Assembly (NCBI RefSeq): GCF_900177275.1
Contig: NZ_FXAG01000009.1
Coordinates: forward strand, 36,984 to 68,983
Direction: 5' to 3'
DNA from: Pseudogulbenkiania subflava DSM 22618
Lineage (GTDB): Bacteria; Pseudomonadota; Gammaproteobacteria; Burkholderiales; Chromobacteriaceae
Length of the DNA: 32,000 bases
In this document: in pieces, positions 1 through 11,064 of the stretch
Position numbering within the stretch: the first letter of the stretch is position 1
How the letters are laid out: each line of letters begins with the position of its first letter
The notes under the pieces: model-generated
Seen by the model: the letters and a program-made list of their open reading frames with translations, nothing else
The model's database searches: none
What the model was told of the DNA's origin: nothing
Translations under genes and position numbers: made by a program

Positions 1-2
1 TC

Positions 3-3000
3 AATCCTGCGCTGGAGGGCTTGGTTGGTGCCGAACAGGCAAAACAGTGGCGTCAAGTGGTGGATGAGCTGCTCGGGCGGTCGGCGTTGCGTGCCGCTGA
101 CGTGATTGATGCACTTGGGGCACTCGCAGTACCCCGATTGCGCACCTTGGAGTCATTGCCTGGCGCAAAGACTGAACTCACGCCACAGTCGTCAGCCCTT
201 GTGTCTAGTGCGGTACTGTTTCACCTTACTTTCATAGGTCAGGCGATCGGTGAAGATCTACGTAATCTACAGCAGCTGCGACCGAATGGCACAGGGCTCG
301 AAACCGCACTGAGGCTCAATAACACGACGAATGATGTAGCGAAGCCAGCAATGCCAGTGCGCGAGATCGACCGCTATTTTACCGTGCACAGTGACCCCTC
401 TCAGGAGGAGGCGGTGTTACTCGCACGGGACGTACCCGGACGACTTATCGAGGGGCCGCCTGGTACCGGTAAGAGCCAGACTATCGTCAATATGGTGGGG
501 GATGCAATCGGACGTCGCCGTAGCATGCTCATTGTTTGCCAGAAGCATGCTGCGCTAGAGGTGGTCTACAAGCGTCTGGTGGCCGAAGGCCTCGGCAATC
601 GTATCATCATGGTGAATGATGTGAACCGCGATCGAAACCCAGTAATCCGGGCCGTTCGAGAGCAGATCGAGGAACTGGTGCGACGTTCCCATGATGCTGC
701 GGCACCAATTCGACGAAAGCGTGATGAGATAGCGGCGCGAATTGAGGCTCTTGAAGGGATCCTGGATCGTCACCACGAGGCCCTACACCAAATCGATGAG
801 CATGTTGGGATTAGCTATCGGGCTCTGCTGGGCGAGCTGATCTGTCTTGAGTCACCGACGGGACCGATTGATGTGCCGGCGCTTCGCCCACTTCTGAGTC
901 GCCTCACGACTGGGGCACTTGCAGCGCTTGAAGAGGCGTGCGCGCCACTTGCTCGCTACTGGCTGCCAGCATGCTACGAAGGAAGTGCGCTCTCCATTTT
1001 GCAGGCGTTTACTCCTGATCCGGCCACGCTTGCCGACTTCCATGAAGCGTTCGACACATTTCGAATGGCAGAAGTGACTCGTGCCGATGTGCTGCTTACT
1101 CAACCAGCGCCTTTCGAGGTCGACGATCCTGCTCCACACCGTGCTTGGCTCACGACCTATGGGGATAAATTCCTTGCTCTGCCTGATGCGACACGTTTGT
1201 TGCTCGCCAAATGGTTGCCACTGTTCCGGGAAGCTGCGGGCGAGATGCCCAAGGGACTTGATTACCTCAAGCAGCTCGCGACTTTGCGCGAGACGCTCAC
1301 TACCTGCAATGAGGCAGATTTCTCAGAGAAACTGTCGGTGGCGGCCAGCGCTCTCGAGCCCGCTGCACTGGACACTCTCTATGCATATACGGTTGAGACC
1401 TGCGCGCCACTGCGGTGGATTGACCATCTGAATTTCAAACGGCACTTGCGCCGGCGTCTGGTGAATGTCTTTCTTATCGAGCAGGGCGCGATCCCAGATG
1501 CACCTCATGTAGCGCGTCTGAAGCGTGTACTGGAACTTGAAAGGCAGTGGCGTCCGCTGCGTAAGGCACTCGGGGAGTTGCACCAAGCATTGCAACTGCC
1601 TGCGATTGCTTCTGATGCGGGGCCGGCGTTGCTTAAGGATGCAACGGCAAGCTATGAGTTATTGCACCAAGTCGCCGAGCTTGCCTCTTTGCTCGCCAAA
1701 GCCCCTTGGCCCGACCGGGTGGACGCCGTTGCCAAAAGTGCGACGCACTCAGCCTTCCTCTCTCATTTTGCCGAGTACGATGCGGCATTCGCCCGGCACG
1801 CAGCGAGGACGGCGAGCCGTCAAGCACTCGCCCGGCTTGAGGGATGGACCATGCCTGAATGGTTTGTTGGCTGCGACTACGCGATTAATGACAATGAACC
1901 CAACCTGGCGAGGATCGCTCCGATCGAGTCGGCACTCCCCACGCTCGCTGCTTACCAGCAATTTCGTGGCCGTGCCGAGCGGCTCTCCGAGCAAGAGCTG
2001 GCCGCCTTTGCGGTGCTGCGCGGCAAGGAGGAGCTGCTGCGACTCATCCACCCAACGGAGCTCGAAGGAGAGATGCGCCGCATCCTTAACCGCGAAGCCC
2101 GTCTCGGCTGGAAACGAGTCATGGAGCAGGCTTCCCCGGATCTTGAACATGACCGAGAGGATCTTGAGAGCAAGGTAGCTATGCTTGCTCAGCTTGACCG
2201 CGAGATGCGTGAGCTTAACCGGCAGCTCCTGCGAGAGGATTATGATCTCGCGCAGATCCGGCCGCTGCGGGAGTGGGAAGACATCACACGGCTCACCGGT
2301 CAACGAGCTCGGCGACTGCGTGAATTCATCGATCGAGGCACTAGCCTGGGGCTCATGAAGCTGCGACCAGTCTGGTTGATGAACCCGGATGTGGCAAGCC
2401 GTGTACTGCCTCTCAAAGCACAGCTTTTCGATACGGTGATCTATGACGAGGCGTCTCAGATGCCCGTGGAATACGCTCTGCCGTCGCTGTTTCGGGCTGG
2501 CGTGTGCGTGGTCAGCGGCGATGAGAAGCAGATGCCGCCAACTGCATTTTTCTCGGGCCGTGTCGAAAGTGATGAAGGTCAGGTCTTCGATGGTGTGGAA
2601 CCGGACGAAGATGCAAGTGAAGAGGAGCAAGAAGCATTTGATGAAACCTGGAACCGGCGCGAGATCAAGGACTGCCCGGACCTGTTACAGCTCGCGCGCG
2701 GGTGTCTGCCCGCTTCCCGTCTTGCAATTCACTACCGATCGGCCTATCGCGAGTTGATTGGCTATTCGAATTCCGCCTTCTATGGCAACCACCTGCACGT
2801 ACCGGTGCGTCATCCCGAGTCGACCGTGCAGGCGGTGAAACCAATCGAACTGGTCGAAGTGGGAGGCACTTACCACGAGCAGACCAATCTCGATGAAGCC
2901 GAACGTGTGGTCGACATTCTCTCCGATATCTGGCGTAAACCACGAGACACATGGCCCTCGGTCGGAGTGGTGACTTTTAACCGCAAGCAGGCGGATCTGA

Positions 3001-3809
3001 TTGAAGAGCGTCTGGAAGCACGGGCTGAACTGGACGAGGCGTTCCGCGAAGCATATCGGTTGGAGTGCGAGCGGGTCGAAGACGGCGAAGATATGGGCGT
3101 GTTCGTCAAGAACGTGGAAAACGTACAGGGCGATGAACGCGATGTGATTGTGTTTTCTTCAACCTTCGGCCGCAATCGCCAAGGCTCCTTCCTACGCAGC
3201 TTCGGCGTACTCGGCCAGAAAGGCGGTGAGCGCCGCCTCAATGTCGCGGTGACCCGCTCTCGGCAGAAGGTTGTAATGGTCACCTCGATGCCGATCGACG
3301 ACATCTCCGATTTGCTCTCGACTCATCGCCCACCTGCTACTCCGCGTGACTACCTGCAGGGATACATGGCCTATGCTCGCGCCGTTTCAACAGGGCAACT
3401 CGGCCTCTCACGATCGCTGCTACAGCGTTGGACTGTGAGCTGCGACGGTGGCCGCGGGCATACAGCTGAGAGGGTAGGCGACGGTTTTACCGAAGCGGTT
3501 TCAGCATATGTCCGTTCACTCGGCTTTACCGTGAGCGAGAGCGTTGAGAATGATGTGTTTGGCCTCGATTTTGCGGTGGAGCATCCACAGACGGGGTTGT
3601 TTGCGATCGGCATTGAGTGCGATGCGCCGCGCCATGACCTGCTCGGCCGTGCCCGGGCCCGGGAGGTGTGGCGCCCTAACGTACTGCGCCGCGCTGTGCC
3701 CATGATTCACCGTGTTTCCTCGCAGGCATGGTATGGCAGTGGTGATGCGGAGCGCTTGCGCCTGCTGCAGGCGATCGAAAAGGCATTACAGATGGAGGTT
3801 GTCCAATGA
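3..3809 (+). CDS. SF1 (Upf1/DNA2-like, AAA_11/AAA_12-type) helicase with a C-terminal DUF559/MTES_1575-like PD-(D/E)xK endonuclease-fold domain; 5' end lies outside the window
   Basis: The frame is open from nt 3, with no stop before the track's TTG at 21. SF1B helicase motif set: Walker A GPPGTGKSQT (453-476), motif II VIYDEASQM (DEASQ 2445-2459), SGDEKQMPPT, HYRS, VENVQGDERDVIVFS, RLNVAVTRSRQKVVMV. About 650 aa are inserted between Walker A and motif II. The C-terminal FGLDFAVEH...IGIECDAPRH...IHRVSSQAWY (core 3567-3623) resembles the Vsr/DUF559 nuclease fold. Confidence 0.85.
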   Translation, partial: NPALEGLVGAEQAKQWRQVVDELLGRSALRAADVIDALGALAVPRLRTLESLPGAKTELTPQSSALVSSAVLFHLTFIGQAIGEDLRNLQQLRPNGTGLETALRLNNTTNDVAKPAMPVREIDRYFTVHSDPSQEEAVLLARDVPGRLIEGPPGTGKSQTIVNMVGDAIGRRRSMLIVCQKHAALEVVYKRLVAEGLGNRIIMVNDVNRDRNPVIRAVREQIEELVRRSHDAAAPIRRKRDEIAARIEALEGILDRHHEALHQIDEHVGISYRALLGELICLESPTGPIDVPALRPLLSRLTTGALAALEEACAPLARYWLPACYEGSALSILQAFTPDPATLADFHEAFDTFRMAEVTRADVLLTQPAPFEVDDPAPHRAWLTTYGDKFLALPDATRLLLAKWLPLFREAAGEMPKGLDYLKQLATLRETLTTCNEADFSEKLSVAASALEPAALDTLYAYTVETCAPLRWIDHLNFKRHLRRRLVNVFLIEQGAIPDAPHVARLKRVLELERQWRPLRKALGELHQALQLPAIASDAGPALLKDATASYELLHQVAELASLLAKAPWPDRVDAVAKSATHSAFLSHFAEYDAAFARHAARTASRQALARLEGWTMPEWFVGCDYAINDNEPNLARIAPIESALPTLAAYQQFRGRAERLSEQELAAFAVLRGKEELLRLIHPTELEGEMRRILNREARLGWKRVMEQASPDLEHDREDLESKVAMLAQLDREMRELNRQLLREDYDLAQIRPLREWEDITRLTGQRARRLREFIDRGTSLGLMKLRPVWLMNPDVASRVLPLKAQLFDTVIYDEASQMPVEYALPSLFRAGVCVVSGDEKQMPPTAFFSGRVESDEGQVFDGVEPDEDASEEEQEAFDETWNRREIKDCPDLLQLARGCLPASRLAIHYRSAYRELIGYSNSAFYGNHLHVPVRHPESTVQAVKPIELVEVGGTYHEQTNLDEAERVVDILSDIWRKPRDTWPSVGVVTFNRKQADLIEERLEARAELDEAFREAYRLECERVEDGEDMGVFVKNVENVQGDERDVIVFSSTFGRNRQGSFLRSFGVLGQKGGERRLNVAVTRSRQKVVMVTSMPIDDISDLLSTHRPPATPRDYLQGYMAYARAVSTGQLGLSRSLLQRWTVSCDGGRGHTAERVGDGFTEAVSAYVRSLGFTVSESVENDVFGLDFAVEHPQTGLFAIGIECDAPRHDLLGRARAREVWRPNVLRRAVPMIHRVSSQAWYGSGDAERLRLLQAIEKALQMEVVQ

Positions 3810-5161
3810 GTGGCCCGAAGGTTGTTCGTATCGTCACGCGGGAAGAACGCATCGCCATAGGCCAGCGACAACTAGCGGAACTTGACCGCTGTATCGAGGC
3901 ATGGCAACGGGCGGTAGCAATGGCAGGCGTTGAGGTAGGCGCAACGATTGCGAAAACCACTGCACACCGGACCAAGTTCCAGACGTTGCTAGCCGACGAC
4001 AAGTTTATGGAGCTGGGGCAACAAGTAGCGAGCGAAGTGGCATATCTGAAGTCCGAGACCGAGCGCTTGCAAGAGGTGGCAATCCAAGCCGCCGCCGAGA
4101 GAAAGGCCAACCGACTGCGTTTACGAGAAAACGCGGTGGTGCTCATCAAGGCCCTCAAGGAAAAAGGGCGAACCGAGAATGAGCCGCTTCTTGCCCGGCT
4201 CGAAGCGGTGCGTAGTGGACAAGGGGAGGTTACCGATATGGAGGTGTGCCTTTCCGAGGCGTTGCGAGCGCTCACCCCAGAGAAAAATGAAGTGATGCTC
4301 ACCGACGTCCAACGTGCACTTGCAGCGCGGCTCAATGAACCGGGTGAGGTGACAACTTTTGACGCTTGGAAAGCCGCGAATGCGGCACCGCTCGACTCTC
4401 GTATCGATCGTATCTACCGACAGTTAGCAGAGCTCGAACTCGCCGGGTTGCTTCCCGCTGCAGCGGTGTTTTCCAAGCGGCTGGAAGCAGTCGAGGAAGT
4501 AGTAGATATGCCAACGCGCAACCTGCGGCTCGATAGCCTGGTGCTCGATCTCGCGACGGCGGTGTGCGAGGCTAAGGCAGAGATGATGCTCATTGAGGAG
4601 GCTAGGGGGCTTGTAGCAGAACTTTCCGTGCGCGAGGAGGCTATCTGTCAGGAAATGGGCACTCAGCTCGAAGCGGCGCTGGGTGCGCGCGATATAACAG
4701 CATTGTCGGACCGGCTAAAAGCAGCAAAAGAAGCGCTTACTGCCGCACACATAGCCGCCGCCGCTGAGGCTCGCAGGCGTGTTCTTCTCGAAGGACTCGC
4801 GAAACTTGGATATTCGGTCCACGAAGGCATGGCCGGTGCTTGGGCAGAGAAGGGCCGCATTGTGCTGCAGAAGCCTTCGCTGCCTGGCTATGGGGTTGAA
4901 ATCGGTGGAAACACTGAAGGCGAGCGACTACAAGTTCGGGCTGTTGCTTTCTCCGCTGATCGGGACACTGCTCGCGACCGTGATGTTGAAACGATCTGGT
5001 GCGGGGAGTTTTCTAAACTACAGGAGGATTTAGCAGTAATTGGCGGGGGGCTAGATATCGAGCGGGCTCTCCTTGTGGGTTCAACGCCACTCAAGGTTGT
5101 TTCTATGACGGAGGAAAAATATGAACAGAGAAGAGTGGAGCACCACCAATTAAACCGGTGA
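3806..5161 (+). CDS. hypothetical protein: long Ala/Glu/Leu/Arg-rich predicted helical or coiled-coil region plus a C-terminal globular part of about 100 aa; translationally coupled to the helicase
   Basis: ATG 3806 overlaps the helicase stop (ATGA, 3806-3809). GGAGG lies at 3794-3798, 7 nt upstream. The ORF is 451 aa and uninterrupted. I recognise no catalytic motif. Confidence 0.7.
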   Translation: MSGPKVVRIVTREERIAIGQRQLAELDRCIEAWQRAVAMAGVEVGATIAKTTAHRTKFQTLLADDKFMELGQQVASEVAYLKSETERLQEVAIQAAAERKANRLRLRENAVVLIKALKEKGRTENEPLLARLEAVRSGQGEVTDMEVCLSEALRALTPEKNEVMLTDVQRALAARLNEPGEVTTFDAWKAANAAPLDSRIDRIYRQLAELELAGLLPAAAVFSKRLEAVEEVVDMPTRNLRLDSLVLDLATAVCEAKAEMMLIEEARGLVAELSVREEAICQEMGTQLEAALGARDITALSDRLKAAKEALTAAHIAAAAEARRRVLLEGLAKLGYSVHEGMAGAWAEKGRIVLQKPSLPGYGVEIGGNTEGERLQVRAVAFSADRDTARDRDVETIWCGEFSKLQEDLAVIGGGLDIERALLVGSTPLKVVSMTEEKYEQRRVEHHQLNR

Positions 5162-5237
5162 GCACTTGCAGCCTGATCAGGCTAAATGTCAGTTTCAGCG
5201 CACAATCCTGCGCCTCGCACCCTGTCGGTAATATCGA

Positions 5238-5267
5238 TTGATATGCAGACATTCGCGACTATATAAA
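5238..5267 (+). promoter_or_regulatory. candidate sigma70 promoter for the 5294 gene
   Basis: TTGATA (5238-5243), then a 17-18 nt spacer, then ATATAA/TATAAA (5261-5267), about 27 nt upstream of ATG 5294. This is the first AT-rich sequence after the GC-rich helicase operon. Confidence 0.45.
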
Positions 5268-5293
5268 TACTGTTAAATTTTGAGATACATCTC

Positions 5294-6124
5294 ATGAAAT
5301 ACTCAATTTACCTATCCGAAGAGGACAAGAAACAGCTCGAATATGAGGTTGTGTCGCAAGAGTTTCGGGTTCACTTAACCCGCCTTATTGAGCGAAATGA
5401 GAATTTCGCCCGGCACTTCTTCATGAATCAGAACTGGCTGATCAATCGCTCCAGAACATTGATCGGCAAAGCTATATACGTTTTGCAGGCCGATGACATG
5501 GGTGGGTACGAAGACTGCGAATACGCTTGGCACAATGGCGAATTTGAGCTTTGCTTTCGCCGCCTTGATACCAGCCGTTTAATTGAACTACTCTGTGAGG
5601 TAATAGATAGGAAATGGCTTGTCAGGAAAGATATAAACAACCTCCTGGAGCAAGAAGGAGCGTCTTTCCGCTTTGTAAAAGGAGCGGGCACAGAAGTCGA
5701 GGTGATTTCGATTGAGAAACTCGAAGAAGATGCTCCTCAGTCAAATGAACATCCAAACATCAGGGTTTTGGTCAATAGAATGGCTTCTGCGCTAGATAAT
5801 TTAGATTACGCTGGCGTTCTTCATTCTAGTGCATCTATATTCGAAACGCTTGCCAAGGATGTGGTCGGAATTGCAAGCGTACAAGGTCAAACATTGGCAA
5901 GTTTCTTTGATCGATACAAAAAAGATTCTCAGCTCCCTGCAGAAATTCAGGCCAAGGTTTTGGAGACATACAAGTCAAGGAATTCAACGCCTTTGGCTGG
6001 GCATGGAAGTACGCAGGCACCTTTGATATCAAAAGAGGAAGCGGTTACTTTGTGTGAATTGACAAAAGCTTTTGTCCGAATTGAATACCACCTACTAGCT
6101 GATAAGGTAGATGCAAAGAGCTAA
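5294..6124 (+). CDS. AbiJ-like abortive-infection protein with a C-terminal Abi_C/HEPN-type motif
   Basis: 276-aa ORF in the AT-rich block. The C-terminal half carries YKSRNSTPLAGHGS (5978-6007), which matches the RN....GHG signature I recall for the Abi_C/AbiJ HEPN clade. The N-terminal half (LIELLCEVIDRKW...SFRFVKGAGTEVEVISIE) resembles AbiJ N-terminal domains. Assignment is by motif only. Confidence 0.6.
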   Translation: MKYSIYLSEEDKKQLEYEVVSQEFRVHLTRLIERNENFARHFFMNQNWLINRSRTLIGKAIYVLQADDMGGYEDCEYAWHNGEFELCFRRLDTSRLIELLCEVIDRKWLVRKDINNLLEQEGASFRFVKGAGTEVEVISIEKLEEDAPQSNEHPNIRVLVNRMASALDNLDYAGVLHSSASIFETLAKDVVGIASVQGQTLASFFDRYKKDSQLPAEIQAKVLETYKSRNSTPLAGHGSTQAPLISKEEAVTLCELTKAFVRIEYHLLADKVDAKS

Positions 6125-6182
6125 CAAGCTTAGCCGTTAGGCACCCAAAAACTAGTTCTTTTAGATTGATTTTGCCAGACTT

Positions 6183-6211
6183 TTGACGTGAGTAATGCAT
6201 ACCGTTATATC
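6183..6211 (+). promoter_or_regulatory. candidate sigma70 promoter for the 6229-7130 micro-operon
   Basis: TTGACG (6183-6188), a 17-nt spacer, TATATC (6206-6211), followed by AGGAG (6215-6219) and TTG start 6229. Confidence 0.45.
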
Positions 6212-6228
6212 TATAGGAGTTAGATTTC

Positions 6229-6603
6229 TTGAGAGAATACAGATTTAAAATCTTGCAAGAAGGTGATTTCTTGTGCGGCCTCAGCGAGAAAGAAATGATA
6301 ATCCGTAACGCCAATGGCGATTATCATATTCACAAATTGTGCGGGCTTGATGGAGGTAAGCCAAGTTTCTTTAAGAGTTTCGAGGTTGTGGCGATACACG
6401 ACATTGAAGATGCATCTGAAAAAGTTACCTTAATTAAATTTGGCGAAGAATATAGAGCCTACAAAATTATCGGAATCCGGGAAGGGTTTCCGACTTTTGA
6501 CGAGAGCTTCTGCATTGTTGTAAAGCGTGGCATCGGGAAAATTGAGGTTTACGACTCGGAGACTGATCTTACTATTACTCTCCCTGCTATGGAGGGTGAA
6601 TAA
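6229..6603 (+). CDS. hypothetical protein (124 aa), first gene of the small AT-rich operon
   Basis: TTG start 9 nt after AGGAG (6215-6219). Its stop TAA (6601-6603) overlaps the next ATG by 1 nt. No motif recognised. The start codon is uncertain; an internal Met at MIIRNANG is possible. Confidence 0.5.
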   Translation: MREYRFKILQEGDFLCGLSEKEMIIRNANGDYHIHKLCGLDGGKPSFFKSFEVVAIHDIEDASEKVTLIKFGEEYRAYKIIGIREGFPTFDESFCIVVKRGIGKIEVYDSETDLTITLPAMEGE

Positions 6604-6863
6604 TGTCTAAAGAAGAAAAATGGGCTGCAAACATCGCGTTTGTTGGAAGCAAGGAAAAGGTGAAGGAGATTTTAAAAATGATAGAAAAGCTTGAAGAGCA
6701 AGGAGAGCTTGAGGACTATACAGGAATTGAGGGGCCATATGACTCTTTGCAATTGATGCTGAAGCGAAGAAATGAGAACCTGGCCCTTGAGGTTGGAGTA
6801 AATAACACCCAAGGCCAATTGAATGTCACTGGGGATTCATCGCAAATTGATGCAGATTCATGA
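6603..6863 (+). CDS. hypothetical small acidic protein (86 aa)
   Basis: ATG 6603 overlaps the upstream stop (TAATG). Its stop TGA 6861-6863 runs directly into the GGAGG of the next gene. No motif recognised. Confidence 0.5.
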   Translation: MSKEEKWAANIAFVGSKEKVKEILKMIEKLEEQGELEDYTGIEGPYDSLQLMLKRRNENLALEVGVNNTQGQLNVTGDSSQIDADS

Positions 6864-6872
6864 GGAGGTGTG

Positions 6873-7130
6873 ATGAACAGGCCGAGTGATCACCGGAAGG
6901 CACAAAACCAAAGAAGGATAATTGATTTAAATATGTGCCAGTTATGCGCATCGACAATTGGAGTTCAAGCACACCACATCTTTGAGTATGCAAAAGGAGG
7001 TCCTTCAACAATAGAAGGTATGATATGCCTTTGCTTGGATTGCCATCAAAGAATGGTACACAGAGATAGCCAAATACGAATCAAGAAGAGAGAAAATCGG
7101 ATAACAACATTTGGACGGGGTGGAGGTTGA
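6873..7130 (+). CDS. minimal stand-alone HNH endonuclease (about 85 aa)
   Basis: CQLC...AHHIFEYAKGGPSTIEGMICLCLDCHQRMVH gives CxxC, then HH (6972-6977), then N/G, then CxxCH, the beta-beta-alpha-metal HNH signature. GGAGG lies at 6864-6868. The track's GTG at 6870 sits too close to this SD, so ATG 6873 is preferred. Confidence 0.75.
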   Translation: MNRPSDHRKAQNQRRIIDLNMCQLCASTIGVQAHHIFEYAKGGPSTIEGMICLCLDCHQRMVHRDSQIRIKKRENRITTFGRGGG

Positions 7131-7383
7131 AATACAGGCCATTTCATTAAATGCCTGCAAGCGGACATAGCTAAGGACATACCAGAGATCGGCGGCTTTC
7201 TGACAAGTAGCGGCTAATGTCGCGAGGAATACGCACGGCAGCTTGAATCGATGACTTGAACCCAGCCGCCGCTCAGTCATAGTCGCCGTTAACGAACAGA
7301 ATCATAATGTCTGCTTGGTGCAAATTACAGACATTCCTTTATGTCAAAGAAAAAAACGCAATTAAGAATGCGAATAATTAAAA

Positions 7384-8625
7384 TTATTGGCGATCTATTT
7401 TTATAGCCATGGCCATTTCAGTGTCCGGGATTGAACTGAAATAGTCCTCATATCCGGAGAATTCATCATCTCCTGGAATGGTGCCGCCATTCAAATAAAT
7501 TGGCGGTCTTTTGAGTCCCATTATAAGTGGATTAAGGCTTTTCTGCTCCGCAAGACGCTGCGCATTACCCCGCAGTGCATTGGAAATGCTTTCAAAATAC
7601 CCGCCGAACTCATTTGCCATGCTTCTAAGTTTTTTGCAATACCCATCGTACATTAGATCAAAATAGTTATTACGTTCGTTTTTCCAAAAAGGAAGCAATG
7701 TAAATATTTCATTGACATCATTGTAATTTGTTAATTTGTGCAAATTCATTACAATAAAATAATATAAAATTTCACGTGGCCATTCACGGTTCAGCCTGAT
7801 AACATCTCTGTATTTCGCATCTTTATTGAGCTCGAAAGCGCATTTCTCTGCAGATGTTCGTAAAAAGTCATCAGGCATCATTAGGATAAAGGCCGATATC
7901 GCAGAAGCCATTCTATAGGCGGTCAACACGTCAGGCTCTCCTTTCTGCAAAGCCACAAAATGTGCCAGTGAATGATACTCTGGTAATTTCGAGTCATATA
8001 CGAACTTTGAAAACTCTTCAGTCAGGACTCTCTTCTCGACTACCCACGATTCGTCGTTTCTACTCAGCGCAACCCCTTCAATTAGCTCTTGCCATACTGC
8101 ATTGACCTCTAGCATGCTACCCAAATAAAGAGGAGATTTGCAAAAGTGACGGCGTTCGTTTCCTTTAAAAAAACAAAGTGAGAGATGTTCAATTTGTTCA
8201 AAAAATACAGGAATGCTCCTAGTGGAAACTATGCGCCATGGCAGTTCTGGAGTATTCACGGATTTATCCTTGAATACTTCTAGGCTGATGTTTTTCTTAA
8301 CCTCCCAGATTGCCTTTCTGTCCTTTGAGTTCTTCGCCAGTCTGAAAATATAATTTAAAATGGATAGCCCTCCTGGAGTGCAGTGCATGTCGACCCAGTG
8401 CCGAAATTCATGGACAACAGGTCTCAAAAGATCTTTAACAATATCATTTACATCTTCGCAGCGCTTCCATTTCTCCAAAAGCGTTAAAAATGACGATGTA
8501 TTGATTTGAAGTTGGATTATCTGGTTTAAATGACCATAGTAGGCGACTGAAGATTGGAGGCACGTGAAATCAGGACTTGGAAGTGAGATATTTGAAGGAG
8601 TGGGCGCGGAATTAAAAAATGACAT
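7384..8625 (-). CDS. hypothetical protein (413 aa) with an HExxH motif (possible Zn-metallopeptidase-like)
   Basis: Long uninterrupted ORF in very AT-rich DNA, convergent with the HNH operon. It carries VVHEFRHWVDMH (HEFRH encoded by 8398-8412 on the minus strand). No other recognisable motif, so the family is unknown. Confidence 0.6.
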   Translation of the reverse strand: MSFFNSAPTPSNISLPSPDFTCLQSSVAYYGHLNQIIQLQINTSSFLTLLEKWKRCEDVNDIVKDLLRPVVHEFRHWVDMHCTPGGLSILNYIFRLAKNSKDRKAIWEVKKNISLEVFKDKSVNTPELPWRIVSTRSIPVFFEQIEHLSLCFFKGNERRHFCKSPLYLGSMLEVNAVWQELIEGVALSRNDESWVVEKRVLTEEFSKFVYDSKLPEYHSLAHFVALQKGEPDVLTAYRMASAISAFILMMPDDFLRTSAEKCAFELNKDAKYRDVIRLNREWPREILYYFIVMNLHKLTNYNDVNEIFTLLPFWKNERNNYFDLMYDGYCKKLRSMANEFGGYFESISNALRGNAQRLAEQKSLNPLIMGLKRPPIYLNGGTIPGDDEFSGYEDYFSSIPDTEMAMAIKIDRQ

Positions 8626-8800
8626 AAGAGATTTCGATTAAAAATTAACAAATTCCATATTTTGTGACTACCGGCAGCTTGTGTTTCTCTACGCTTTAGG
8701 ACATGTAAAAAGTAGAGTGCACGGCAGATTGCAGCGCGAACCGGTCACTTTAATGATGGCTTTACAGGAAGGTACAGCGGTAGTTCCTAGCGATAGTGGA

Positions 8801-9110
8801 CATGCTAGCACATAGACATGTTCGTCTGCTTTAGCAGAACCATTGTGGCGGCCTGCCATGCGTCTGTTCTACCCGGATACCGGGCGTTGACGCTTTGACT
8901 GATCGGTCGGAAACAGGGGAGCGCGTGTGCGCATCCCCTGGTACAGAAAGCCGACTCCCGGTGCCAATGACAAAGAAATTGTCTGAATGTGGCCTTGGTC
9001 TGACTCCGGGTGGATGGGGTGGGCGAGCTGCGTTTGCCGACCTCTCGCCAGCATCACTTGACGGGTAGTCGGTCGGCCTTAGCAGACATTCATGCCCATG
9101 TGCTAGCATG
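8801..9110. repeat. GC-rich element of about 310 bp bounded by imperfect 35-bp inverted repeats (MITE-like or IS-end remnant)
   Basis: Left arm 8801-8835 is catgctagcacatagacatgttcgtctgctttagc. Reverse complement of right arm 9076-9110 is catgctagcacatgggcatgaatgtctgctaaggc. The outermost 13 positions are identical and 27/35 match overall. The interior has no convincing ORF and contains strong local hairpins, e.g. ggggagcgc-gtgt-gcgcatcccc around 8917-8939. Confidence 0.4.
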
Positions 9111-9165
9111 ACTATTGCCGGCCACAAGCGGATTAACGCCCTACATCGCAACCCTGGACGCAAGT

Positions 9166-9831
9166 ATGATCACTCTGCCGAAGTTCTTTCTCGCCTTGGC
9201 CAAACGCGGTTGGGCACAGCATGTAATTGAGGGCTTGGAGGGTGATGCTGTCGTTAGTGAACTCAACCGCGTTGGAGATCTTCTTGGAACACGTATCAGA
9301 GGGCGGACCGCTTCGCTCATGGAGGTTGTTCGTCCTCAAGCCGTAGATGATGCTCATCCGCGATCCTTGAGCGCGCGGTACGGTTTTGGTGCGTTACCGT
9401 TCCACGCCGAACTAAGCCACAGACCTCGGCCCTGCCGCTATGTCCTTCTGGGCTGCATAGAACCTGGCCCGCTAAGCACAGCGACGCTGCTGCTCGATTG
9501 GAGAGCCCTCGACTTTTCACCCGAGGAGCTTCACCTTCTCGAAAGCGCACCGATCTTTGTTCGAACTGGCCGGCGCTCATTCTACTCAACCATACTGTCT
9601 TCCGACCGCTCCTTCCTTCGATATGATCCTGGCTGCATTGAAGCCATTGATATGCGTGGACAAGCAGCCCTGCGACTCGTAGAACAACGGCTGGCTGAAG
9701 GTTTACCAGAAGTTCATCATTGGCACAGGGGCGACATTCTGATCATTGATAACTGGCGCGTTCTGCATGGGCGCGGGACGTCGGAACAAGACACTGGTCG
9801 GTGCTTAGCAAGGATACTTATCGATGCCTAG
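9166..9831 (+). CDS. TauD/TfdA-family Fe(II)/2-oxoglutarate dioxygenase-like protein
   Basis: PFHAELSH (His 9403-9405, Glu 9409-9411) together with HHWHRGDILIIDNWRVLHGRG (His 9766-9768) gives the HxD/E...H facial triad and the DNWR(V/L)LHGR signature seen in TauD/gamma-butyrobetaine-hydroxylase-type enzymes. ATG 9166 is preferred over the track's TTG 9115, which lies just past the right inverted-repeat arm (9076-9110), with nothing but that arm upstream of it. Confidence 0.7.
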   Translation: MITLPKFFLALAKRGWAQHVIEGLEGDAVVSELNRVGDLLGTRIRGRTASLMEVVRPQAVDDAHPRSLSARYGFGALPFHAELSHRPRPCRYVLLGCIEPGPLSTATLLLDWRALDFSPEELHLLESAPIFVRTGRRSFYSTILSSDRSFLRYDPGCIEAIDMRGQAALRLVEQRLAEGLPEVHHWHRGDILIIDNWRVLHGRGTSEQDTGRCLARILIDA

Positions 9832-10762
9832 CGATGTCTTTATTGCAATAAACAGCGATGCGCTTTATACGATGTCAAAGGTTTACATCGGCCGTGCACT
9901 GCTCAGAAAAGGGAGCAGCGATCTTGATGAATATCAGCTCTGGGCTTCGCTCGCGCTGGAACTGCTAGGAAAAGCTGCGCTCGCACATAAGCACCCGAGC
10001 CTCGTCGTCGATCCAACCCATTCCCCATCGATGTTTGTCGCAGCCGGCATCAATGTCACGACCGATGTAAAAACCATCACTGCGAAGACCTTATTCGAAC
10101 GCCTCGCACATCTCGTTCCAAGGTTCGACAAAACCATCCAGAAATTTTGCCTGGAAATTTCAGAACGTCGCAACGCTGAACTTCACTCCGCCGACATCCC
10201 ATTCCGGGCCATGCGACTCGACGCTTGGGAAGCCCGCTACTGGCATGCCTGCGACACAATTCTTCTCCATATGGGTTCTTCGCTGGAGCAATGGTTAGGT
10301 GCTGCGGATGCTAAGGCTCCACGTCATTTGCTCGATGAAGCGGCCAAAGCACTTGATGCAGCAGTGAAGCTACGCGTTGAGGCCGCCAAGGAGCAATTCG
10401 AAGCACTGAAGAAGGTCGAGCGTGATCGCCTGATGGCGGAGGCTGAGTTGCGGGAGCCTCAACACCTGGCTGGCCTTTTCAAAGGTAGTTACGATGAAAT
10501 TTGGAAAGAATGCTGCCCAGCATGTAAATGCCGTGCTTTTATGACTGGCGAACAGACTGGGGAAGACATTAATGAAGAGTGGGACGAAGATGCAATATGG
10601 GAAATTGTCGATCGCGAATTTGTTGGCGAAGAGTTTCACTGCCCGACATGCGACCTAACTCTCATGGGAAGCGATGAGATCAATGCAGCGGGTGTGAGCT
10701 ACATCCACAAAGATCAGCAGGAGCGCGAGATGGAGTACGAGCCAGACTACGGCAATGACTAG
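9824..10762 (+). CDS. HEPN-domain protein (Rx4H RNase motif) with a central coiled coil and a C-terminal 4-Cys zinc ribbon
   Basis: ATG 9824 overlaps the dioxygenase stop TAG 9829-9831 (ATGCCTAG), with AGGA at 9811-9814. The N-terminus is helical, with ALELLGKAALAHK and EISERRNAELHS (RNAELH 10169-10186), the canonical HEPN R-N-x3-H. The C-terminus has CCPACKC (10511-10531) and CPTC (10640-10651) followed by an acidic tail. Confidence 0.7.
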   Translation: MPSDVFIAINSDALYTMSKVYIGRALLRKGSSDLDEYQLWASLALELLGKAALAHKHPSLVVDPTHSPSMFVAAGINVTTDVKTITAKTLFERLAHLVPRFDKTIQKFCLEISERRNAELHSADIPFRAMRLDAWEARYWHACDTILLHMGSSLEQWLGAADAKAPRHLLDEAAKALDAAVKLRVEAAKEQFEALKKVERDRLMAEAELREPQHLAGLFKGSYDEIWKECCPACKCRAFMTGEQTGEDINEEWDEDAIWEIVDREFVGEEFHCPTCDLTLMGSDEINAAGVSYIHKDQQEREMEYEPDYGND

Positions 10763-11064
10763 ACTAGGCAGCGGTGCTGCATGAAAAAATCAGCAAGAGT
10801 TGCGGCCTTCAAGCGAGAACGAAAAATGGCGAGTCACCGCTCAACATATGGGGGCGGAACAGCCGAGTCGGGTCGAAAGTCCGAGATCCTGAGGGGCGAA
10901 TGCCGAAATTCGGTGCAGTGACAGGAAAGTGGCCGGTATGTGGCTCTGAGCAGACGTTCAGGCCAGATGGGGCAGCCAACCGCTTTGGCCGAAAAGCCGA
11001 GGCCCGTACGCGCATTGGTCAGTGACTATTTCGTAAACGACTACATTCCCAGGCCCTGAAAAAG

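Follow-up and report, generated by a model that had tools for sequence, protein, structure and literature searches.

A translationally coupled four-gene operon links a giant helicase-nuclease to a dedicated 451-residue partner and may encode an anti-phage machine

A giant helicase-nuclease and a smaller partner protein are encoded side by side at the left edge of a 32,000-nucleotide (nt) stretch of the Pseudogulbenkiania subflava DSM 22618 genome (contig NZ_FXAG01000009.1, positions 36,984 to 68,983, forward strand), referred to here as the window. The partner, of 451 amino acids (aa), is dedicated to the giant protein, and the two genes belong to a set of four that travel as one translationally coupled unit. 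This unit is without a name or a described function in the libraries and papers searched, which agrees with the original prediction that the pair matches no named system. In our reading, to which we give about even chances, the four products would form one multi-subunit helicase-nuclease machine acting on nucleic acid, most likely against phages or plasmids and related to the anti-phage proteins Hhe and ProA. The four genes in operon order, with the parts that lie in the window, are as follows.

Gene 1, upstream of the window: ATPase of ~607 aa with a ClpB-D2-type AAA_2 domain (Pfam AAA_2, 158 bits)
Gene 2, upstream of the window: NrdG-like radical S-adenosylmethionine (SAM) protein of ~214 aa (Pfam Fer4_12)
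Gene 3: giant protein of ~2094 aa with zinc ribbons, a degenerate kinase-like domain, DUF4011, a superfamily 1 (SF1) helicase with an insert and a Vsr-like nuclease
3..3809, plus strand: C-terminal 1268 codons of the giant protein, the frame being open from the window edge to TGA 3807-3809
3794..3798, plus strand: Shine-Dalgarno sequence GGAGG, 7 nt 5' of the partner ATG and within the giant open reading frame (ORF)
3806..3809, plus strand: ATGA stop/start overlap with translational coupling (ATG 3806-3808, TGA 3807-3809)
Gene 4, 3806..5161, plus strand: partner protein of 451 aa, a family without a name (ORF, homologues and AlphaFold2 (AF2) model)

The window opens inside the giant gene, and the original prediction had rightly noted that the N-terminus and any upstream partner genes lie outside it. 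An exact look-up did not find the window's own partner sequence on record, and the upstream DNA was taken from a Vogesella relative, DC21W, with an 87%-identical protein. Window positions 1-5163 align to the DC21W contig (locus L001, 6196-11358) at 90.6% nt identity. The TTG at position 21 is not the start of the giant gene; the frame continues past the window edge, and the first ~826 residues lie upstream. A full-length protein of 99% identity (P0121) has 2094 aa. The true start is an ATG that overlaps the radical SAM stop codon by 4 bp. In Vogesella, Cupriavidus and Pseudomonas the genes for the ClpB-like AAA+ protein and the radical SAM protein precede the giant/partner pair, and all three junctions in the operon are overlaps or 1-nt gaps. 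The pair is only the 3' half of a four-gene operon.

The distribution of the operon was followed with an alignment of the partner. A pattern-seeded scan of one genome per species confirmed the partner in 206 of 185,579 representatives, which is a lower bound. The counts of synteny and conservation given here rest on 80 of these 206 partner-seeded loci, with 74-80 homologues per protein. The 80 loci span the Beta-, Gamma- and Alphaproteobacteria, the Acidobacteriota and the Chlamydiae, and this spread across phyla implies horizontal transfer of the operon. All four genes are present in the same order and orientation in 76 of the 76 partner-seeded loci with enough upstream DNA. Three loci found from the helicase instead (Comamonas, Ralstonia, Acidovorax) all have the four genes in the same order. 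Co-occurrence with the helicase had been set beforehand as the test of a dedicated partner, and the partner passed it from both directions.

The junction between the two genes is as described from the window alone, an ATGA overlap preceded by a strong Shine-Dalgarno sequence, and the 4-bp overlap is retained in ~70 of 78 related loci. At one locus, in Ralstonia nicotianae (L086, 12024-13184), a gap of 165 nt takes the place of the overlap with the giant gene, and the partner as called has 386 aa; this may be a degraded or mis-called copy.

The giant protein carries the full Upf1-type helicase motif set and the C-terminal Vsr-like nuclease that had been predicted for it. The motifs can be located individually, and Pfam recognizes AAA_11 (aa 130-232 of the window part, E 1.7e-14), AAA_12 and MTES_1575. 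The features of the window part are these.

453..476, plus strand: helicase motif I / Walker A, GPPGTGKS, aa 151-158, invariant in 78 homologues
684..2276, plus strand: all-helical insertion within RecA1, about aa 228-758 (~530 residues), helices only in the AF2 model, with predicted local distance difference test (pLDDT) values of 85-93
2445..2459, plus strand: helicase motif II / Walker B, DEASQ, aa 815-819, invariant in 78 homologues
2709..3287, plus strand: RecA2 half of the SF1 helicase, Pfam AAA_12, aa 903-1095, motifs IV to VI (E 1.6e-18)
3486..3776, plus strand: nuclease domain, Vsr/DUF559-like PD-(D/E)xK, Pfam MTES_1575, aa 1162-1258 (E 1.2e-16)

Further Upf1-type motifs are motif Ia, SGDEKQMPP, HYRS, VQGDERD and GGERRLNVAVTRSR, and the 78 homologues show little or no variation in motifs I, II, III, V and VI. 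The predicted catalytic residues of the nuclease are D1189 (nt 3567-3569, in LDFAV) and E1205 with D1207 (nt 3615-3623, in GIECDA). The aspartate and the E-x-D, which reads E-C-D in GIECDA, are invariant in 77-78 of 78 homologues. The insertion in the ATPase core had been put at roughly 650 aa. That figure fits the spacing between Walker A and Walker B, which is 657 residues, whereas the net insert is ~530 residues and entirely helical by AF2. No part of the giant protein varies more than the insert, whose mean pairwise identity is 45% versus 70-75% in the RecA domains, and a comparison of the insert's AF2 model with folds in the PDB gave no significant match. The AF2 model of window aa 69-1268 is mediocre overall (pLDDT 68, predicted template modelling score (pTM) 0.38), and its helicase part has weak core fold matches to Sen1, Ighmbp2, Upf1 and Dna2.

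The 826 residues encoded upstream, as seen in relatives, contain two zinc-ribbon-like Cys motifs, a Pkinase-like domain and most of DUF4011. Among the Pfam families that the original prediction had listed for checking, AAA_11, AAA_12 and MTES_1575 are present in the window and DUF4011 joins them in one polypeptide in full-length relatives, while Pfam finds no DUF3320 tail on the giant protein. The best 120 helicase relatives all have Pkinase, AAA_11, AAA_12 and MTES_1575, and nearly all have DUF4011, a few short entries apart. The kinase-like domain follows the zinc-ribbon-like motifs (L001 3720-4900, the upstream part of the giant gene). It keeps HRD, the DFG aspartate is replaced by glycine in 72 of 78 homologues, and the catalytic-loop asparagine is threonine, serine or alanine in most. 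Judged by these residues, the domain is probably a pseudokinase or an atypical kinase and not a conventional one.

Pfam, NCBIfam and PADLOC return nothing for the partner. Its homologues, at least 714 in one search and 1317 clusters at 50% identity in another, show that it is no chance ORF. In the best 150 of these 1317 clusters it is a standalone protein, fused to no larger one, and its length is nearly always ~435-480 aa, a few short entries apart. Conservation along the chain is uneven. The N-terminal 14-mer MSGPKVVRIVTREE (nt 3806-3847) is nearly invariant, with 93% mean pairwise identity; the helical middle falls to 34%; and the C-terminal alpha/beta domain (aa 320-432, nt 4763-5101) reaches 60%. 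As a whole, the partner is the fastest-evolving protein of the operon, at 42% mean pairwise identity versus 59-69% for the other three. It had been described as a long helical, coiled-coil protein with no recognizable motif. The AF2 model (pLDDT 82.5, pTM 0.69) agrees in that it has ~12 helices, the longest of 54 residues, and the protein does belong to no known family; the model adds an N-terminal beta-strand (residues 2-10) and the C-terminal alpha/beta domain, so that 'coiled-coil' describes it only in part. Foldseek searches of the PDB and BFVD with this fold returned nothing at E < 0.5, and a sequence-profile search of the PDB returned de novo helical designs only, at E 0.001 or worse. 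Two possible origins of the partner were rejected, as a split-off C-terminal Hhe domain of the DUF3320 type and as a duplicate of a domain of the giant protein, each with an hhalign probability below 1%.

The two upstream proteins keep their signature motifs across homologues. Both Walker motifs and the GYVGY pore loop of ClpB-D2 are retained in the ClpB-like protein. The radical SAM protein has kept its Cys triad, GGEP and RGSxNQ, the last a motif of Escherichia coli NrdG as well. In the Prokaryotic Genome Annotation Pipeline (PGAP) annotation the four genes bear generic names only. A full-text literature search found no description of ProA or of the gene combination in the operon, and the only relevant text concerned the flanks of a hotspot, which is taken up below.

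Judged by profile scores, the nearest named relatives of the giant protein are the anti-phage proteins Hhe and ProA and the candidate PDC-S37. It is a relative of Hhe and ProA and not a member of either family, because its scores are far below the NCBIfam equivalog cut-offs (2000 bits for Hhe, 1500 bits for ProA). Hhe, a single-gene anti-phage protein (NF042953), resembles it in combining DUF4011, an Upf1-like SF1 helicase and a C-terminal MTES_1575 domain in one giant polypeptide. The NCBIfam Hhe score is 287 bits for the window part and 305-319 bits for full-length relatives, all below the cut-off, and the PADLOC score is 204-226 bits. The Hhe annotated by PGAP on Klebsiella plasmids aligns with window aa 766-1248 only (RecA2 and the nuclease), at 30% identity, and in the single Klebsiella locus that was examined, hhe has no neighbour of the partner, ClpB-like or radical SAM kind. 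Hhe begins with a HEPN domain, as its name implies, whereas the N-terminus of the giant protein has zinc ribbons and the Pkinase-like domain and no HEPN match. Hhe is also a stand-alone single gene, in contrast to the four genes of the operon.

ProA (NF058533, 'anti-phage protein ProA') is the best NCBIfam match, and the alignment spans the helical insert. Window aa 121-1264 match positions 641-1709 of the 1903 in the profile at 442 bits, and full-length relatives score 479-521 bits. These scores fall short of the cut-off, and the alignment leaves both the N- and the C-terminal ends of the profile uncovered. The ClpB-like, radical SAM and partner proteins have no NCBIfam match to any Pro-named family. 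PDC-S37, a PADLOC single-gene candidate with no partner genes modelled, is the strongest PADLOC match (431-495 bits). The match covers profile positions 289-1344 of 1550 and 54% of the giant protein; its first ~960 residues and about a third of the profile are unmatched. Other PADLOC matches of the operon proteins are mad6, PD-T4-6, DolB and PDC-M37B.

The closest published architecture is that of CoCoNuT type III-B. In its CnuH protein a UPF1-like SF1 helicase is fused to a Vsr-like nuclease and carries, after Walker A, a large helical coiled-coil insertion. CnuH works with coiled-coil partners and an AAA+ NTPase; CoCoNuTs are built round the McrB-type GTPase CnuB and the McrC protein CnuC (PMC11090510). 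The helicase, the helical insert after Walker A and the Vsr-like nuclease are common to both. In contrast, the AAA+ protein of the operon is ClpB-D2-like and not of the McrB type, none of the four conserved genes is of the McrC type, and the operon instead encodes a radical SAM protein along with an unrelated partner of 451 aa. The resemblance to Dodola is confined to the ClpB-like protein, which matches DolB at 75 bits; no operon protein matches DolA (DUF6414). The best NCBIfam match of the radical SAM protein is NrdG (TIGR02491, positions 12-150 of 154), at 81.8 bits, which is below the 126-bit cut-off. It differs from NrdG in an extra C-terminal extension of ~60 residues, and there is no NrdD in the operon.

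The original prediction had offered Nhi and Mokosh as defence comparisons, and neither is borne out. PADLOC gives no match to Nhi, either for the window part of the giant protein (E <= 0.01) or for its full-length relatives (E <= 0.001). With Mokosh the giant protein has a COG1112-type helicase core in common, and MkoA (100-163 bits) and MkoC match that core only. Membership of Mokosh was rejected on the nuclease as well, which is Vsr-like and shows no PLD domain in Pfam, and on the lack of a partner nuclease of the PLD type. Hhe, ProA and PDC-S37 are closer.

Several observations favour a role in defence. The nearest named relatives are anti-phage, and the signature motifs of the helicase, nuclease, AAA+ and radical SAM proteins are intact and conserved. 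The neighbours of the operon include defence-type genes. In Vogesella DC21W they carry AAA_13, SIR2_2 and DUF87/HerA-type domains, in company with HD-CE/HATPase_c_3 domains, and in Pseudomonas paraeruginosa (L045) the same position holds an AbiO/Nhi-like gene and BREX genes together with a UvrD-like helicase. In Pseudomonas aeruginosa the operon genes are a core flank of the defence hotspot cDHS1, and they are described only as flanks (PMC10250203). Flanks also swap between near-identical operons, which is accessory-like behaviour. Operons of at least 90% nt identity often have 0 of 8 kb downstream in common and only ~100 nt upstream. This stretch of ~100 nt 5' of the ClpB-like gene is homologous across differing flanks (L004, L028, L033, L037, L039, L056 and others), which suggests a conserved promoter or operator that moves with the operon.

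If the four proteins do form a defence machine, the giant protein would be its effector, a translocase on DNA or RNA that cuts through its nuclease domain. The partner would serve as an obligate subunit with a regulatory or targeting function. A possible interface is suggested by the two fastest-evolving regions, which are both helical: the variable body of the partner (34% in its middle) may be in contact with the insert in the helicase (45%). The AAA+ protein, with its ClpB pore loop GYVGY, could remodel or extract a subunit and so switch the complex on or off, and the invariant N-terminal 14-mer of the partner could serve as its handle. The radical SAM protein would supply a radical-based activation or modification step on some substrate. 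Such a scheme would amount to a new class of immune system, in which an Hhe-like effector is gated by the 451-aa subunit, a ClpB-type unfoldase and an NrdG-like radical SAM enzyme. We put this forward tentatively, as possible but short of an even chance.

The consequences of such a class would be considerable. Radical chemistry and protein unfolding would be control steps of a nuclease-based defence, and the combination of a radical SAM activase, an AAA+ unfoldase and a helicase-nuclease is undescribed in the papers and libraries searched. The 'core flank' of cDHS1 in P. aeruginosa would itself be a defence system carried by every isolate, and this would change the reading of the best-known hotspot of that species, its boundary marker being also an immune gene set. 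The operon occurs in more than 200 species, including important Pseudomonas and Burkholderia groups.

A number of points weigh against a defence machine of this kind. The Hhe and ProA scores are so far below the curated cut-offs that function is not transferable from these proteins. Phospho-signalling is doubtful, as neither the DFG aspartate nor the catalytic-loop asparagine is kept in the kinase-like domain. No glycyl-radical substrate was found within the operon; the four proteins have no conserved R-[IVT]-[CSA]-G-[YF] motif among their 74-80 homologues, and the partner has no Gly_radical match in the Pfam scan. The roles suggested above for the three smaller proteins derive only from domain logic. 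The operon is absent from phage genome records, and on plasmids it is found only in replicons of at least 424 kb. Several genomes have housekeeping neighbours, among them ssb and uvrA (Cupriavidus), recO (Comamonas) and cytochrome bd, and xanthine dehydrogenase is another ordinary neighbour in some. Finally, no P. aeruginosa isolate lacks the genes, which count as core flanks in that species (PMC10250203); such a status is unusual for a defence system.

The last two of these points favour a housekeeping complex for genome maintenance, which could act in repair, replication restart or the removal of R-loops and other aberrant structures; in it the helicase-nuclease would work on DNA or RNA of the cell itself, with the other three proteins as assembly or regulatory factors. 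We consider this explanation rather unlikely, and yet it is the strongest of the alternatives. Apart from the core status of the genes in P. aeruginosa (PMC10250203) and the position of the operon next to ssb and uvrA or near recO, it is favoured by a guanine-cytosine (GC) content of ~58%, close to that of the surrounding chromosome, and by the Upf1/Dna2/Sen1-like helicases, the best weak fold matches, which include housekeeping enzymes. It fits poorly with the 206 matches among 185,579 species representatives (a pattern-seeded lower bound), with the different flanks of near-identical operons and with nearest named relatives that are all anti-phage proteins. PA2727/PA2728 of P. aeruginosa may be the giant gene. 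Comparative-genomics papers on P. aeruginosa report insertions and deletions in PA2727, described there as DNA helicase-like, and these would suggest, if the assignment is right, that the gene is dispensable. Were the operon a repair machine instead of a defence system, the tie between an NrdG-like radical enzyme and a helicase-nuclease in aerobes would still be unusual.

A second alternative is a specific variant of the defence reading, in which the partner would be an antitoxin-like inhibitor of a toxic helicase-nuclease and the ClpB-like unfoldase would strip it off by its N-terminal tag on infection, as an abortive-infection switch. Coupled translation favours co-production of the giant protein and the partner. 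The N-terminal 14-mer, at 93% mean pairwise identity on an otherwise fast-evolving protein, would suit a tag, the Walker motifs and GYVGY pore loop of the unfoldase are conserved, and AAA+ ClpB-like subunits are found in Dodola and PDC-M37. However, AF2 places residues 2-10 of the partner in a beta-strand (pLDDT ~78) that may be buried and not exposed, and the radical SAM protein has no role in the scheme. We regard this version as improbable.

That the operon creates or maintains a recombination hotspot, its helicase-nuclease promoting the gain or exchange of adjoining DNA, is very improbable: homology to DC21W does stop 2 nt past the partner stop, unrelated cargo meets the same point in Pseudomonas, Stenotrophomonas and Paraburkholderia, and a perfect 14-nt palindrome begins 9 nt past that stop, but no integrase or recombinase is conserved beside the operon, ordinary housekeeping genes lie downstream in several genomes, and the upstream flank is variable too, which fits an operon that merely sits in variable regions.

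Taken against these alternatives, an anti-phage or anti-plasmid machine remains the reading that we prefer, and the original interpretation is partly supported, the defence role being one that we infer.

The remainder of the window is context for the operon. The segment that directly follows the partner gene is this.

5164..11023, no strand assigned: variable low-GC cargo slot between the partner stop and nrdB, not part of the operon

The window and DC21W are homologous up to 5163 and again from 11024, just before nrdB. The slot is 5.9 kb long in the window, with a GC content of 41-45% at 5-9 kb, and 9.6 kb long in DC21W, and the two are entirely non-homologous. The palindrome AGCCTGATCAGGCT (5170-5183) lies just within the non-homologous cargo. 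A consensus scan found no plus-strand terminator 3' of the operon. The first cargo gene (5294-6124, plus strand, 276 aa) has a weak likeness to AbiJ N-terminal domain 4 (E 0.0096) and to PDC-S32 (E 1e-4), and it may be a defence gene. A 413-aa ORF on the minus strand (7384-8625), also in low-GC cargo, has no match in Pfam, NCBIfam or PADLOC. Farther along, in the segment 9115-10762 (plus strand), a 238-aa ORF, possibly a truncated or divergent gene, aligns with no more than the C-terminal third of the TauD/TfdA dioxygenase profile and overlaps the start of a 312-aa ORF with a very weak DUF3644 match. Beyond the slot, positions 11181-31913 hold ordinary core genes: nrdB, nrdA, a RluD-like pseudouridine synthase gene, bamD, pgaC-like and pgaB-like genes, purL and a gene for a globin-GAF-GGDEF-EAL protein.

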